Positions 14,119 to 57,366 of a stretch of 64,000 bases of DNA are shown one piece after another (the stretch's first letter is position 1; each line of letters starts with the position of its first letter). The notes under the pieces are model-generated. The model was not told where the DNA came from and searched no databases. It saw nothing but the letters and a program-made list of their open reading frames with translations. The stretch is taken from the IMG/VR virus record IMGVR_UViG_3300032030_000037, positions 36,101 through 100,100 of that record; one strand, given 5' to 3'. The position numbers and the translations under genes are program-made. This DNA comes from a virus (lineage: Duplodnaviria; Caudoviricetes).

Positions 14119-14961
14119 TTATTTTAATGCTTTAATGTTAATTTTCGGTTTCAAGATAAATTCTACGGATGCACAGGGGTCGAGGTTCTCTAAGATTTCA
14201 TCCTTAGGTTTATACGCCATAGGAGATTCATCTAGAGTTTCCCGACAGACAGAAGTTGAGTAGATTCCCTTCATACTTTTCTCAAAGTCCTTCAGAGATA
14301 TCTTAGACTTAGCCGCCGACCTAGACATTAATCTTCCTGCACCATGAGGGGCGCTGAAGTTTGTGTCGGGATTTCCTTTCCCTCGACAGACCGCAACTCC
14401 ATCTCTCATATTAAGTGGGAGAAGGAAAATCTCATTCTTCTTCGCCGAAACCGCACCCTTTCGTATAATTGGAGTGGGACCAGAAAAGTCAATGTAGTTA
14501 TGTCGTGTGGTGATTCGTTCTTTCTCTAGGCCCCCAGTAAGTTTTGTATAGACGTCAAGAATCCTGTCCATAATTATCTTATGATTCCAAGATGCATATG
14601 ACATACAAACTACCATGTCCGTTAGATAGCCACGAAGATTCTCACCACTAAGATAGCCTAAGTGGATATTTTCTTCTTTCCATTTCTTAAGCTCCTCATC
14701 TATAGTAGGCTTAATCTGATGCTTGTCTATCCCAGGCCTTGACTTCACCTCTTCCTGGATGGCTCTCTGAATATCCTTCGGCACCTTATCACACATAGCC
14801 TGAGATTTCCAGTATTTATTTACTTTCACCCCCAAGTTTCGTGAACCCGTGTGTACAGATATTCCTTGAAATTGTGTGAACGTAGGATGTGAGAACCCGA
14901 GAGGATTACTACCAAAAGAGTCCCAGGTATTCTCTCCTTCATCATACTCAATATAATGATT
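14119..14961 (-). CDS. rtcB: RtcB RNA ligase, exon 2
   Basis: NHYIE, VHTGSRNLG, HNYID, RKGA, SAPHGAGR and DESPMAYK motifs. Confidence 0.93.
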   Translation of the reverse strand, partial: NHYIEYDEGENTWDSFGSNPLGFSHPTFTQFQGISVHTGSRNLGVKVNKYWKSQAMCDKVPKDIQRAIQEEVKSRPGIDKHQIKPTIDEELKKWKEENIHLGYLSGENLRGYLTDMVVCMSYASWNHKIIMDRILDVYTKLTGGLEKERITTRHNYIDFSGPTPIIRKGAVSAKKNEIFLLPLNMRDGVAVCRGKGNPDTNFSAPHGAGRLMSRSAAKSKISLKDFEKSMKGIYSTSVCRETLDESPMAYKPKDEILENLDPCASVEFILKPKINIKALK

Positions 14962-15885
14962 CAATTTGTTACGCTGTATTTTTAAAATATTCTATTCTTA
15001 TAACTAGACCTCCATGGCCTAGCTGGAACTGTTCTAGTCCAACTCTGTAATTCTACAGCAGAATTATATTTTCTATCTATGTATATTTCTGGATTTCCAA
15101 AGATATACAATAGCTTTGCTAAGTCTACTGCAGCTTCATTAGTTACTACAATATTATATACATTATCTCTTTTATTTCTAGTAGCTGACTTTTGCAAGTT
15201 CATTCTTTTATCTAAAAATTCAAGAAACTTTGTTTTCATATCTTCGCTTTTTGTAACTAGCCCTATAAATGGAACACTGCTTTTGCTAATGCCCAAGCTC
15301 CCGTCCCCATCTATAACTCCTCTCCAAAAGTCTACCTCACTATATTCAACTATTGGGGTGCTAGCTAGACTTGTTTTATCTTTCTTAGGATATCCAGAGT
15401 TTATTAGATCTGTCCTAAAATCTAACATTCCATCAACAAAACTATAACTAGTATAACTTTCGCTAAAATTTGTAGATCTAGTTCTAATTCTAATATGTGA
15501 TTCTGGATATAAATTATGTAATTTTTCTACTATATCTTTGTCTTTTTCACTAACCTCTAAGGTAACTCTTCCTCTATTTCTTACTTTAGCAAGATACAAG
15601 TTTCCGTCAGTTATTAAAAGTCCAAAGACATAGCTTTTTATTTTATCTAACACAAATCTTCCCTCCTTTTATATAATACAGCGACTAGGTCATTTCTGCC
15701 TAGTTCTGCAAGTTCGTATTCCTTGCAGTTCGGAGCACACCTTCAGCTTTTACCGCTGCTCAAGTCCCTCTGCTCTCTACGGGGGTATTTAAACCTTCCC
15801 TCGGAGATTGGCATCACAGCCTCTCCCGATATGGACGAGTTTTACAATGAACGATTATTAGTCGTTCTGGAGGCAATCAAGTCTC
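14962..15885 (-). mobile_element. Group I intron (924 nt) in rtcB
   Basis: Exon GGAGGU pairs with intron GCCUCC (P1, U-G at the splice site). P3 gucc/ggac. P7 region guagagagca / aaggugugcucc. Terminal G precedes AAU CAU. Splicing restores GTLGGG-NHYIE in frame (453 aa). Confidence 0.9.
14982..15653 (-). CDS. Intron-encoded double-motif LAGLIDADG homing endonuclease
   Basis: YVFGLLITDG and FWRGVIDGDG motifs. The ORF is looped out by the cgctgtatt/aatacagcg stem. GTG start with aggagggg upstream. Confidence 0.9.
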   Translation of the reverse strand: MLDKIKSYVFGLLITDGNLYLAKVRNRGRVTLEVSEKDKDIVEKLHNLYPESHIRIRTRSTNFSESYTSYSFVDGMLDFRTDLINSGYPKKDKTSLASTPIVEYSEVDFWRGVIDGDGSLGISKSSVPFIGLVTKSEDMKTKFLEFLDKRMNLQKSATRNKRDNVYNIVVTNEAAVDLAKLLYIFGNPEIYIDRKYNSAVELQSWTRTVPARPWRSSYKNRIF

Positions 15886-16404
15886 ACCTCCACCTAAAGT
15901 TCCAATACTTTTATAGAATGTTGCCAGATCCATTCCAATTCCACTACACCATCTCTTCAAGTCATCCTCATCATTGAAATCAGGAATCCAAGTGAGTCCG
16001 TGAGTGTTCTGATATGCTTTCTGAAGTTCTGACCTGAGATAGGCTAGAAATTCTTTAACATCAAAACACCGAGAGGGTTGGATTTCGTCGCCCGTTGGAA
16101 TTGCCTTCCTGACACGATGTTCAAATAATGCATAATCCTTCGGGTCTAATGGTTTATCGAGGAATAGCATTGAAACACTACACCCTATATCAACCCCTAT
16201 ATAGTCGGGATCTATGTATTCGCCAAGTTCAGAGGTAAATCCAATACAGATTCCACTCCCCGCATGAACATCCGGCATAATCCTAACTTTAAGTCCCTTC
16301 CACTCTGGAGCTTTAATTGTATCATAAACCTGCTGAAGTGCGGCAGGTTCAATATTATCTGTAAAAATTTTACAGTCTAATCCATTATTATTTATTTCTT
16401 TCAT
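15886..16404 (-). CDS. rtcB: RtcB RNA ligase, exon 1
   Basis: RIMPDVHAGSGICIGFT, GVDIGC and SIGTLGGG motifs. Confidence 0.93.
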
Positions 16405-53105: not shown

Positions 53106-53437
53106 ATTAGATATAAATGTAACAATTGTAAATAAAATACTAGCAAAAATAATAGAATCTGATCCAGACCTAATCGGAATAATAAAAAATCTCTTAAAGA
53201 AAGGTCTAGAGAAAAGCAGCTATTATGGCGAAGAAAAATTAGAAGACTTAGTAGCATCAAAAACAGACTTACAGATGCTTGATGCTAGATTACATGGGCT
53301 TGAGCATAAACTAGGGATGGATACTTGGACTCCATATGAATATAACAGTATGTCTATTCTAGAAAGAGTTAAAGCACTAGAACGAGTCGTAGATAATTTA
53401 GAAATCCAAATAAACGATTTAACTAATAGCTTAGAAT

Positions 53438-54109
53438 ATGGAAAATACAGTAATAGATTCAATTAATATCAATAGCGCTAATTTAAATAGCGACGGGACT
53501 ATAACACTTACTGCCGACAACGGAACAACTACTTGTTCCAGTAGCAGTAGTATAACAATAGATCCCAGTGCTTTTAGTAATAGTTTAAACTATGCTGGAA
53601 CCTTGACGAATCTAGGCAACGGTATAGTATGTAACACTGCAACTGGAAACTATTATTCAACAACTGCCTCATGTGGTTTCGATTCGTGGGACGTTGCAGA
53701 AAAATCAGAAACTTTGGAAGATGTAGTAAAGAAAAGACTTGAAGATCTAATAGAGGATGAAGATGAGATGATGCCTCTTATTAAAAATTATCTCAGAAAA
53801 TATCTTGAAAAAGTTATGGATAATCCAGATGAGATAATTAAAAGAGATGAAGAGATTAAAAAACAAAAGGAAGAGATTAAAGATCTTAAGGAACAGGTAA
53901 AATCATTGAAAGAAGAGATAAGAGTTCTACAGTCATACAAGCCTATTGGACTTGGGGACTATGATTATATAGGAACGAATCTCCCGGGAATTACAGTAAC
54001 AACGGCTGATTCGTCCTGGTACTATGATTCAAATGCCGTTACGTCTTCTTCCTCATTTACTGAAGTATATAAAAATAGCTGTCAAAACACTACTTCTACA
54101 ATCGGCTGA
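53438..54109 (+). CDS. Hypothetical coiled-coil protein with Ser/Thr-rich termini
   Basis: Heptad segment EIKKQKEEIKDLKEQVKSLKEEI. Confidence 0.6.
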   Translation: MENTVIDSININSANLNSDGTITLTADNGTTTCSSSSSITIDPSAFSNSLNYAGTLTNLGNGIVCNTATGNYYSTTASCGFDSWDVAEKSETLEDVVKKRLEDLIEDEDEMMPLIKNYLRKYLEKVMDNPDEIIKRDEEIKKQKEEIKDLKEQVKSLKEEIRVLQSYKPIGLGDYDYIGTNLPGITVTTADSSWYYDSNAVTSSSSFTEVYKNSCQNTTSTIG

Positions 54110-54112
54110 AAA

Positions 54113-54123
54113 CCTTATATATG
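54113..54123 (+). promoter_or_regulatory. CCTTATATATG promoter motif heading the ribozyme-containing transcript
   Basis: Perfect motif followed by a 5' hairpin (aaagagactaga/tctagtctcttt). Confidence 0.65.
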
Positions 54124-54189
54124 TAGAAATACCTAAAGAGACTAGAGAACGATTTCTAGTCTCTTTAATCTTCTAATGTGCTTGAAACG

Positions 54190-54757
54190 AATAGTACTAC
54201 GGATTATACAATATACGGAAGGTGCATACACGGAATTGTATAATTAAGATCTGGGAGTGATTAGTCCAGCGTCGTCTGAGCGACGTTAAAATATGTATGG
54301 CCAAAAGCTTAATAGAGTTGTTGTTAGCTCTACGCGTAAAGCGGCTTTTGGTATAGGCTTAGAGCGGAAAGAATTAAATATGGTTTTTACGACATAGCCA
54401 CGCCGGGTGGCCCCATTGTGAGGGCACGCCTGGTGGGCAATATAACAATTTTAAATAATTTTATAAATCGAAGAGATTTATAAACCTGAGACATTGAGAG
54501 TATCTGATGAAGATATTTCAATAGAGATGTTTCAAAACGCAGTAACCATGTATACGTGGTGAACTGAGAAAAATAAACTAGATACTGTAAATCTAGGTTA
54601 TGTAGTATCAGAGCGTTAATATAGTTCGGAAAAGTATTACAGACAAGTACCACTAGGAAATTTAAGGAAAGTTAACTTTCTTTATAAGGATATATTAAAT
54701 TATAAAATAAGAATGAGTAAATCCCGAGGAGGGAAGAAAATGAAATCCTAGTACTAT
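54190..54757 (+). ncRNA. Large (~570 nt) structured RNA domain
   Basis: No credible ORF. Ends pair (atagtacta-c-ggatt / aatcctagtactat), enclosing at least 8 hairpins. Confidence 0.55.
54270..54396 (+). ncRNA. Pistol-like self-cleaving ribozyme (variant with inserted stem)
   Basis: P1 cgtcg/cgacg. Loop tctgag pseudoknots with cttaga (54358-63). ttaaaata linker, 'tagg-PK-gcg' core, P2 tatg/cata, wobble-rich P3. Predicted cut G54391/A54392. Confidence 0.7.
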
Positions 54758-54867
54758 ATTGAAAGTCTTTGGGAGAGAAGCCTAAAGCAAAACTATATAA
54801 ACGGAAAGGTATAATTTAAATAATAACCTTTCCATTAATTTTTCAAGAAACCAATTTTATAACAAAT

Positions 54868-55050
54868 ATGCAGATTCTTAAAGCACTTGCGGCTATCATT
54901 GCTGTTCCTACAGCTATTGTTGCTGGAATCAATGAGACCGCCAAACTCGCCGATGCATCAAGAAAATCCGGCGGGTTATTCCGAGAGATCGGAAAAGAAA
55001 TCAAATCAGTCTTCAATACTGCCAAATCAATTGGCAAGAAAAATGACTAG
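54868..55050 (+). CDS. Small hydrophobic/amphipathic protein (60 aa) between the ribozymes
   Basis: ATG after an A-rich leader; overlaps the next ORF. Confidence 0.55.
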   Translation: MQILKALAAIIAVPTAIVAGINETAKLADASRKSGGLFREIGKEIKSVFNTAKSIGKKND

Positions 55051-55174
55051 AGAGGAAAAGAGTCCGGATGGATCTTACAAAAAGATCGACCTAGGATCTC
55101 CACGAGACTGGGCATGGGCAACTTTACTGTTTACCATAGCACTCAAAGTCTTTCAGTCATTATTTAAAGACTAG
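55043..55174 (+). CDS. Small membrane peptide (43 aa) between the ribozymes
   Basis: MTREEKSPDG...WAWATLLFTIALKVFQSLFKD. Confidence 0.5.
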   Translation: MTREEKSPDGSYKKIDLGSPRDWAWATLLFTIALKVFQSLFKD

Positions 55175-55201
55175 AATTCCTAGTGGGCCCTTTAAGACCC
55201 A

Positions 55202-55279
55202 CTCTGTAGTACGTTTAATACGTGCCTGATGAGACCAGAGACATTCCCCTAAAAAGGAATGCCAAAGGTCGAAACAGAG
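55202..55279 (+). ncRNA. Type III hammerhead ribozyme
   Basis: Stem III ctctgt/acagag, GUA cleavage triplet (cut after A55208), stem I gtacgt/acgtgc, core CTGATGA (55226-32), stem II gacc/ggtc extended by cattcc/ggaatg, then GAAA. Confidence 0.92.
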
Positions 55280-55348
55280 AATAAAAACCGGCTACTAATG
55301 TTAGCAAACGTTTATATTCAACATGAATAAACTATTAACAAACATAGC

Positions 55349-55591
55349 ATGAAAGAAGAAAAGAAAAAATTTAACTGGAAGAAGGCCGGAATTGTAGCAG
55401 CATTAGCAGCTGTTGCAGCCGGTTCATTTCTTCTTGGGGTGCTAGCCGGAAAGGAGCACCCAGAAAAAGTGCTTGAGTTGGAGAACCGATCACTCAGGCG
55501 AGAGCTTAAGAAAACCCAGAATCGGGTTGAGAGCCTATCGTATAGGCTGGGCAAGGTCGCCCAACTACTTGAGACCTACAGAAAAGAGTAG
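55349..55591 (+). CDS. Membrane-anchored coiled-coil protein
   Basis: TM segment followed by heptads. Confidence 0.6.
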   Translation: MKEEKKKFNWKKAGIVAALAAVAAGSFLLGVLAGKEHPEKVLELENRSLRRELKKTQNRVESLSYRLGKVAQLLETYRKE

Positions 55592-55596
55592 CCGCT

Positions 55597-55980
55597 ATGA
55601 ATCAGGTAATTTTAGTGAACGGAAAGGCGGTTACGGGGATGTTCGATTACGCCCCAGGAAATGGAATGATGTATGAAGGAGAGTATAATATCTCTGAGCT
55701 CAAAAACATCATCTTTACAAAAAATTCAATCGACAATCCTGCAGTTGAAAGCCTTCTGCGGGAAAAGTATGGCCTTGGGAAAAATCTTCCTGAGGTTCAA
55801 TCTAAGTACAATCCGAAGACGAAGGGATTTGAAAAAGATCTTCGCACATATATTGATGCAGGAGATATTGTATATTCCGTTGTGACTCCGGATGGTGAGA
55901 AAATTCATCGTGGAAAACTTAGCGGTGATACATTGCCGATAGATCTGAAGATTAAGGTCCTCAAATATATCGGAATCTAA
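55597..55980 (+). CDS. Hypothetical protein
   Basis: 127-aa ORF in the same operon. Confidence 0.6.
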   Translation: MNQVILVNGKAVTGMFDYAPGNGMMYEGEYNISELKNIIFTKNSIDNPAVESLLREKYGLGKNLPEVQSKYNPKTKGFEKDLRTYIDAGDIVYSVVTPDGEKIHRGKLSGDTLPIDLKIKVLKYIGI

Positions 55981-56016
55981 TAATTGTTTAACTCTTAATA
56001 CCCAACAAAAGAAAGT

Positions 56017-57366
56017 ATGGCAAAAGAGAGAACTGTCGAATACTATCAAACCCTGTTTATGGGAACCGGTACTGAATTCGACATAAAAAAGCTTTACAAA
56101 GCGGCGAAAGAAGCAGATGACCTTCACGACTTCCCCAAAAGAAGCGATGCGGCCTATCAAGTTTGGGCTTCAAAAATACTTCGTCGCCTAGAAGGAACCC
56201 CTTTGGTAACTATAACCAGAGCAGGAAAATCCTATAAAACAATCCAGGTTCACGATGCTAACGGAGCTGCTTTACTTCTTGGAAAAGGAAGCGAAGACAA
56301 CAAAACTCCTGTATCGGAACCGAAAAAAGAAACACCGACTGAAATCACAGAAGCTGTCATCGCCTATACGATGGAAGACAAATTTGTGATTTCCTGCAAG
56401 GCTCTTCGCTTTGCCGTTCGAACCAGCAATGGCGGAATAGAAGCGAAGATTAAGCCCGAAGATCTCATGGAAGCGTGTCTTCATAAGGAAAGATTTCCAG
56501 AGATTGCAGAAATTATTCAGGCCCTTTCTGATATCAACTTGGACATACAACTTCCTGTTGTGAAAGAAGAGGAAAAACGGATTATCTTTACTAATCACGT
56601 TTCAGACCTGAAAAAAGTGTGTGATAGGGGAACTGAATTGTATCCCTCTCGCTGGAAAAACCTCTTTAACTTTAAGTTTGCTTGCGACAAGGCTTATGAT
56701 GCTGCATTGGAAACTCTCCGTAAGGAAAAAAGGGGTGAAATTAAACCAGCAACAAAGACATCGGCCATAGAGGTTTTTACCGATGATGATAACTTCCGAG
56801 TTTTCATCATGGGAGGATACCTTATGGATAAGATGAAGGAGAGCCACGAAAATGCATCCATTCGAGAGCTTGGAACTGTATTAGAGAAAAGAGGTAGGAG
56901 TCTCAGCACTCTTAGACTTGAGTCTCTGATTAATAGTGTACCTGAGTTCTACGTGGATGGAACTGAAGTGTATCTCAAACTGAAAGACAAGGACGACAAA
57001 GATTTCTGGGACAAGTTCCGGAAAAAATACTGGCCGTTATCTGGGGAAAAAGAGCAGATTATCTGCAACCTCAGGATGTCTCTGGAAGAAATTTCTGAGA
57101 AACTCTCTGGAAGCCAGGTAAAGCTGGTAGACGAGCATCCTGATGGATTTAACACTTTCCGTGTTGATCTTCCCAAGAACTCGGTAGTCGCGAAGTACAA
57201 CTTTGCAGACTTCATGAACTGCCTCCGAAAAGGAGAGCAGATCTACACTGACAGCAAGTTCGTCGATAGTCTCTGGTCTCTTAAGAAGAAAAGAGATTCG
57301 TCACTGAAGATTCAGGACGACCTTTATCGATATGAGATCGGATATTTTGGAAAGAAGAGGGTTTAG
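56017..57366 (+). CDS. Hypothetical protein (449 aa)
   Basis: Long ORF; no recognised motif. Confidence 0.75.
   Translation: MAKERTVEYYQTLFMGTGTEFDIKKLYKAAKEADDLHDFPKRSDAAYQVWASKILRRLEGTPLVTITRAGKSYKTIQVHDANGAALLLGKGSEDNKTPVSEPKKETPTEITEAVIAYTMEDKFVISCKALRFAVRTSNGGIEAKIKPEDLMEACLHKERFPEIAEIIQALSDINLDIQLPVVKEEEKRIIFTNHVSDLKKVCDRGTELYPSRWKNLFNFKFACDKAYDAALETLRKEKRGEIKPATKTSAIEVFTDDDNFRVFIMGGYLMDKMKESHENASIRELGTVLEKRGRSLSTLRLESLINSVPEFYVDGTEVYLKLKDKDDKDFWDKFRKKYWPLSGEKEQIICNLRMSLEEISEKLSGSQVKLVDEHPDGFNTFRVDLPKNSVVAKYNFADFMNCLRKGEQIYTDSKFVDSLWSLKKKRDSSLKIQDDLYRYEIGYFGKKRV

Follow-up and report, generated by a model that had tools for sequence, protein, structure and literature searches.

A conserved cassette in jumbo phages from gut and rumen with predicted pistol and hammerhead ribozymes around an abundant structured RNA

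The DNA analyzed here, referred to as the window throughout, is a stretch of 64,000 nucleotides from a 100.1-kb IMG/VR virus record, and as CheckV rates that record at a completeness of 27%, an origin from a jumbo phage is indicated. Near-identical DNA is present in sheep and cattle gut metagenomes from 13 studies. Its plus strand holds a promoter motif, a pistol-type ribozyme with a large insert, a structured non-coding RNA, a terminator-like hairpin, two small open reading frames (ORFs) and a type III hammerhead ribozyme (Table 1). A gene for RtcB, considered here as a candidate ligase only, lies 38 kb from this cassette.

Table 1. Positions of the cassette elements and of the RtcB gene in the window.
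Feature	Position	Strand	Basis or description
Promoter motif AAACCTTATATATG	54110-54123	+	predicted start of the cassette transcript; RNA contigs begin just behind
Insert-bearing pistol ribozyme	54270-54396	+	hand reading, covariation, covariance model R1
Pistol P1	54270-54285	+	100% of cells paired; double-sided changes in 2 pairs
Pistol pseudoknot	54275-54281 with 54357-54363	+	P1 loop UCUGAGC with GCUUAGA; 100% of cells pair
Pistol P2	54296-54299 with 54393-54396	+	UAUG with CAUA; hand reading
Branched insert in pistol	54300-54352 (53 nt)	+	outer stem and two hairpins, one with conserved loop UUGUUGUUA
Pistol core AUAGGCUUAGAGCG	54353-54366	+	read against pistol consensus UUAgGCccaGAGCG
Pistol P3	54367-54390	+	hand reading
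Pistol junction, predicted cut	G54391/A54392	+	predicted from homology
Conserved structured non-coding RNA, about 450 nt	54392-54848	+	3' product of predicted pistol cut; homologues, covariation
5' hairpin of non-coding RNA	54397-54438	+	
Intrinsic-terminator-like hairpin	54803-54843	+	stem 54803-54810 with 54826-54833, then AUUAAUUUUU; fold
60-aa small ORF	54868-55050	+	hydrophobic N-terminal segment
43-aa small ORF	55043-55174	+	hydrophobic C-terminal segment
Feature before hammerhead cut	55183-55202	+	predicted fold
Type III hammerhead ribozyme	55202-55279	+	complete core, fold, descriptor, covariation
Hammerhead stem III (open)	55202-55207 with 55274-55279	+	
Hammerhead predicted cut	after A55208	+	GUA triplet
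Hammerhead stem I	55209-55225	+	
Hammerhead CUGAUGA	55226-55232	+	
Hammerhead stem II	55233-55270 (38 nt)	+	internal loop
Hammerhead GAAA	55271-55274	+	
RtcB gene, two pieces around LAGLIDADG ORF	14119-16404	-	PF01139 profile positions 14-153 and 154-425
LAGLIDADG homing-endonuclease ORF (LAGLIDADG_3)	14982-15653		inside about 900 nt that split RtcB at profile position 153/154

The first-pass annotation of this DNA had proposed a pistol-like ribozyme that cuts between positions 54391 and 54392. At its gathering cut-offs Rfam gave no match in the window, and in permissive mode it reported one Pistol match, at 54270-54322, with 20.3 bits against a cut-off of 34.5 and with a wrong alignment that places the insert at the position of the core. 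The cut-off is missed because a branched domain interrupts the pistol after the 5' strand of P2, ahead of the core. In an alignment of ten relatives the structure pairs in 93.5% of cells, compared to 30-46% with slid partners, and 20 of 37 pairs have changed on both sides, among them eight of nine outer-stem pairs and five of six hairpin pairs of the insert. The core GAGCG is invariant in all ten, and one pair of the pseudoknot switches from A-U to G-C, a change that occurs twice between close relatives (L005 versus L022/L030 and L041 versus L061). P2 pairs in just 62.5% of cells, with one compensation (UGUG with CACA in L029), and it was looked for and not found in the pistols of lineage B; some copies may thus cut poorly or fold differently. 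The window pistol further has one extra base, C54390, beside its junction, and this junction is GA where GU is usual. As the GU of the cut site is somewhat variable while the junction length is fixed at 2 nt (Harris et al., PMC4604425), a GA junction should be tolerable. A covariance model built from the alignment (R1) found exactly one copy in each of the four genomes searched, G000, G001, G003 and G004, two of which are complete. The covariation in ten relatives bears out the pistol-like element as real; its self-cleavage is a prediction from sequence, and the position of the cut is taken from homology.

Like members of the known Pistol family (RF02679; Weinberg 2015; Harris 2015, PMC4604425), which likewise occurs in phage DNA, the element has a P1 of consensus UCGUCUGRGCGA, and its P1 loop is joined with the core by a 7-bp pseudoknot; an A-rich linker and the core GGCYYAGAGCG are present, P3 is a hairpin of variable sequence, and 2 nt are read as the junction to P2. 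It differs in a branched domain of 50-85 nt between the P2 5' strand and the core, in its GA junction, in a P2 of 4 bp that is not evident in one lineage, and in its low Rfam score. The insert itself varies strongly among strains: in RNA contigs from two studies 54302-54350 are swapped for 85 other letters, and two further RNA contigs depart from the window sequence at 54301.

Relatives were sought with a pattern of pistol P1, a gap and the core, which matched 4 loci in IMG/VR, 55 in metagenomes and 10 in genomes. About 35 of the 55 metagenome matches and 9 of the 10 genome matches were discarded by eye as chance matches in G+C-rich coding DNA, and about 20 matches are true A+T-rich relatives; they belong to five jumbo phage lineages from gut and rumen, and P1, pseudoknot, core and insert are all kept, with compensatory changes. 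No matches were obtained with blastn of 54100-55350 against 50,697 phage records, with the exact P1 21-mer in IMG/VR, or with a pistol pattern allowing insert lengths of 88-118 nt, and the neighbouring protein (56017-57366) had no relative in IMG/VR. One relative, L107 (JAGAYY010000025.1, 376 kb), is filed as a 'Bacilli bacterium' bin from water-deer omasum; it contains the whole cassette, with five small ORFs ahead of the hammerhead, and is probably a jumbo phage genome that was binned together with a bacterium. Lineage D (L037, L039, L046, L056 and L059) has insert-bearing pistols with a different insert that lacks the UUGUUA loop; behind the pistol come small ORFs at once, in place of the 450-nt RNA, and the insert form is thus not bound to this RNA alone. 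The 17-kb viral contig L003 carries two Rfam-significant pistols, at 1034-1108 and 2106-2228, 1.1 kb apart on the same strand. Ahead of the second, at 2106-2119, lies a perfect P1-like hairpin with a loop that suits the pseudoknot better than does the P1 assigned by Rfam, and judging by sequence this may be another kind of insert-bearing pistol, with L011 similar in look.

For the hammerhead, proposed earlier as a canonical one that cuts after 55208, the minimum free energy fold is a three-way junction (z = -5.6). A descriptor script found it as the single match in the 100-kb record, with zero matches under strict settings, at equal stem lengths, in 100 dinucleotide shuffles. In homologues at the same place and distance (L047, L018 and L029) stem II shows compensatory changes, and one of them has GUC in place of GUA. 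As MAFFT misaligned the full set of seven sequences, the alignment was limited to five, in which all 20 modelled pairs hold (100% of cells) and seven have changed on both sides. We consider the hammerhead genuine, as the first-pass annotation had it, with self-cleavage predicted. Rfam hammerhead models, including Hammerhead_3, did not report 55202-55279 even at E <= 10, probably because of the 38-nt stem II. A covariance model for the hammerhead (R2) was too narrow and was dropped, and since it missed the hammerheads of L004 and L005, the descriptor script was used for all counts. With this script the complete 353-kb G003 yielded a single hammerhead, that of the cassette, while 396 kb of G001 yielded two, of which one is the cassette's. 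The second type III hammerhead in G001, a 401-kb relative, lies near position 529 on the minus strand, far from the cassette, and has a 12-bp stem I. With the type III hammerheads known from phages and prophages (RF00008; Perreault 2011, PMC3088659) the element shares the core CUGAUGA...GAAA and the GUA triplet, its stems I and II are likewise closed and its stem III open, and it too lies between genes of a phage operon; it differs from the RF00008 hammerheads in its long stem II with an internal loop and in the silence of the Rfam models.

Between the two ribozymes, an nhmmer search revealed a homologous RNA of about 430-480 nt behind the insert-bearing pistol in five lineages; a core-motif search for it returned L005 only. 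RNAalifold predicts 43 pairs from an alignment of nine sequences, 24 of them compensatory. The RNA contains no tRNA and no long ORF on its own strand, and no Rfam family matches it, either in 53900-55500 at E <= 10 or in L002, L004 and L005 at E <= 1. The L047 copy matches that of the window at 97.2% identity, compared to 80.3% for the next ORF, which means that the RNA changes about seven times more slowly. By fold prediction a stable hairpin starts 3-11 nt 3' of the predicted pistol cut in every lineage, with unrelated sequences, and a hairpin that is kept in structure near the predicted cut is what would be expected for a protected linear 5' end. The complement of the conserved insert loop UUGUUA (54320-54328), UAACAA, is found at 54443-54448 and 54858-54863, that is, just 3' of the 5' hairpin of the RNA, as in most lineages, and again right before the small-ORF start codons. 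The terminator-like hairpin is conserved in L018, L029 and L026; a simple terminator scan had missed it because its loop measures 15 nt. Downstream, the 60-aa ORF retains 54 of 60 residues in L047, with mostly third-position or synonymous changes, and the 43-aa ORF is less certain as a gene because it has no family match; neither small ORF matched Pfam, PHROGs or a protein atlas. Like ROOL and GOLLD (PMC5737381), the RNA is large, ornate and phage-linked, and ROOL too was first found in rumen data (PMC5737381). It differs from both in having no Rfam match at E <= 10 although Rfam includes them, in its length of about 450 nt, in the ribozyme ahead of it and in the lack of adjoining tRNA genes.

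The order of these elements is maintained in the relatives: a promoter, one insert-bearing pistol, the non-coding RNA, zero to five small ORFs that are often hydrophobic, and the type III hammerhead, which follows the pistol core on the same strand at a distance of 0.5-1.75 kb in the window and in L047, L018, L029, L005, L002, L004 and L107. In L005 it stands directly behind the non-coding RNA, with no ORF between. The exception is the L022/L031 lineage, where pistol and RNA are followed by a terminator and no hammerhead was found there. As the same layout recurs, the pairing of the two ribozymes is not due to chance, and we regard it as a conserved module. The motif AAVYCTTATATATR at its head occurs seven times in the window (4321, 24441, 29397, 34951, 44578, 44945 and 54110) against 0.87 expected, always in gene direction, and it also precedes the cassette of L004 and L005; it probably serves as promoter for an RNA polymerase of the phage itself. 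Ribozyme clusters by phage genes have been described before, with the processing of polycistronic transcripts as a proposed role (Weinberg 2015; review PMC6765202). As in those clusters, the cassette has ribozymes of different self-cleaving classes near each other on a single strand of phage DNA, but here they occur once per genome, in a fixed arrangement that encloses one large, conserved non-coding RNA, and expression data are at hand.

These data consist of Logan contigs from four metatranscriptomes of four studies, mapped on 53400-56100. Note that such contigs render the ends, strand and level of an RNA imprecisely and drop rare forms. The depth of 54136-54848 exceeds that of the ORF stretch 3- to 25-fold, depending on the run, and that of the flanking genes roughly 10- to 250-fold. 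In run X15, word depth was 4-6 in the upstream gene, 430-1300 in the leader with the pistol, 473 over 54404-54643, about 20 over the ORFs (54861-55183) and 16 in the next genes, and the profiles of the other three runs had the same shape; such contrasts exclude a carry-over of DNA. The RNA contigs start at 54136-54210 (e.g. 54136 and 54147), just 3' of the promoter motif. In three of the four studies they end at or just past the terminator, at 54804, 54807 and 54848, while in the fourth, X15, the contig of this RNA reaches only 54643. Word depth past the terminator is about 4-37% of that ahead of it, the 60-aa ORF has low RNA cover, and the flanking genes have none in X7 and X19, which is a weak hint at most. 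Another observation concerns the X15 contig 54404-54643, which has sequencing-adapter letters at both ends and suggests a discrete, abundant fragment of the non-coding RNA, 240 nt long, in that library.

The first-pass annotation had placed both ribozymes on one plus-strand transcript. They do share a strand and one promoter motif, with no second copy between them, but the terminator lies in between and no RNA contig of the four studies bridges it into the ORFs of the phage. Termination at this hairpin, which had been named as speaking against the earlier proposal of an excised, circular RNA, is largely what the contig ends and the drop in depth reflect.

Whether the pistol cuts constitutively bears on the nature of the RNA, since its insert might instead make a regulated, protein-dependent or inactive fold, leaving leader and non-coding RNA together as one RNA of about 700 nt. 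We consider this rather unlikely. The similar depth of the two parts agrees with it, as do the GA junction, the weak P2 and the Rfam score below cut-off, and the UUGUUA/UAACAA complementarity of most lineages could tie both parts together; this pairing is consistent in position but not significant, as it is no better than that of shuffled loops. In all four runs no RNA contig crosses 54373-54400, which points to a cut, albeit as a weak hint at most. The polymorphic sites coincide with these contig breaks: L047 differs from the window at 54400, 54401, 54409, 54427 and 54434, in the 5' hairpin, and such strain differences, rather than a cut, could cause the breaks near 54373-54455. Over five lineages, however, P1, the pseudoknot and the G-A-G-C-G of the core have been maintained exactly, with compensatory changes, which would be hard to explain without a catalytic fold, and the hairpin behind the predicted cut, kept in structure and not in sequence, likewise speaks for cleavage.

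A different fate for the RNA was at the center of the first-pass annotation, namely that the piece between the two cuts, 54392-55208, is excised and made circular by RtcB. In Tornado constructs, tRNA-intron circles and viroid or retrozyme circles, ends with a 5'-hydroxyl and a 2',3'-cyclic phosphate are joined by an RtcB-type or tRNA ligase. The cassette resembles these systems in its predicted ribozyme cuts on both sides and in the ends these would leave, as the end chemistry of both ribozyme classes fits RtcB (PMC8782182). The phage does encode RtcB at 14119-16404, as annotated, by its match to PF01139 in two pieces; the gap holds no group I or other recognised intron according to Rfam and may be an uncatalogued intron or the mark of a split or broken gene. 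The ligase gene is not only far from the cassette but also interrupted by an ORF. RtcB is present in G000 and in the complete G001, and it is common in bacteria, as evidenced by control genomes, so that the enzyme of phage or host might act on this piece or, in cases such as L005 where the hammerhead follows the RNA without an ORF, on the non-coding RNA alone. The bracket itself is conserved in five lineages. Conservation of both ribozymes together with rtcB, as the earlier proposal would have it, was not found: the complete G003 carries the full cassette and no RtcB, RtcB was not found in the half-complete G004 either, and L022/L031 end at the terminator. The bracket encloses terminator-like hairpins, and the protective hairpins at both new ends would be superfluous for a circle. 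The proposed pairing of the ends, ACAUAG with CUCUGU, reaches five of six positions in the window but four of six in L018 and L029, with no compensating change, and thus lacks covariation. In the contigs of the four metatranscriptomes the back-joint 55208->54392 (CUCUGUA/ACAUAGCC) is absent and neither cut site is covered, which agrees with linear ends; in X15, the one run with cover around the hammerhead, contigs break off at 55183 and start again at 55332. As contigs drop rare forms, these are weak hints at most. Unlike the Tornado-type circles, the cassette shows no junction and no conserved stem uniting its ends, has terminators within its bracket and a ligase gene that is not co-conserved. 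Together with the indication that the RNA mostly stops at the terminator, this leaves circularisation by RtcB, though chemically feasible and favored by the conserved bracket, quite improbable.

The same data bear on a possible origin as a mobile RNA element, bounded by ribozymes in the manner of a viroid or retrozyme, that entered different phage genomes. On 54401-54848 the contigs of all four studies agree with the window as far as they reach, while flanks do differ, and one RNA contig departs from the window sequence just past 54848, both of which would suit such an element. The cassette is present in one copy per genome, always behind the phage promoter motif, with ribozymes of two classes and without a repeat; neither a reverse transcriptase nor a replicase was noted in the vicinity, and the lineages diverge in step with the flanking small ORFs. 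This origin is therefore very remote.

The reading that we prefer, with a probability of about 0.6, is that two self-cleaving ribozymes serve to make the RNA ends of this cassette, which jumbo phages of gut and rumen carry in single copy. Transcription would begin just 3' of the promoter motif and run through a leader of about 255 nt that carries the insert-bearing pistol. Cleavage at G54391/A54392 would release the structured non-coding RNA with a 5'-hydroxyl and its first stable hairpin 5 nt from the new end, and as the contigs suggest, most of this RNA would end at the terminator, yielding a very abundant linear RNA, with the leader cut off by the pistol about as abundant. A minority of transcripts may read through, across the two small putative membrane-protein ORFs, to the hammerhead; we infer this step on the sole basis that no other promoter motif lies between. 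The predicted hammerhead cut would then separate and insulate the cassette from the next genes, leaving a hairpin near the new 3' end, and the message downstream would start with the folded hammerhead. If the terminator were sufficient by itself, the retention of the hammerhead in most lineages would count against this end-making role; that it is kept there for circularisation by RtcB, resulting in a natural DNA-encoded circular RNA of the phage, with or without the small ORFs, seems improbable to us.

A literature search turned up neither a paper on an insert-bearing pistol nor one on a natural circular RNA that a phage makes with ribozymes and RtcB. The roles of self-cleaving ribozymes in phages and bacteria were described as "largely elusive" in a 2019 review (PMC6765202). 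What the cassette adds is a form of the pistol ribozyme that carries a large inserted domain and escapes the current Rfam models, and a phage RNA family of about 450 nt outside the catalogued families, abundant enough to assemble from several rumen metatranscriptome studies. Were the circular model true, it would be a natural counterpart of engineered systems for circular-RNA expression. With a pistol and a hammerhead that bound one very abundant structured RNA, the cassette offers a concrete and testable job for such ribozymes.
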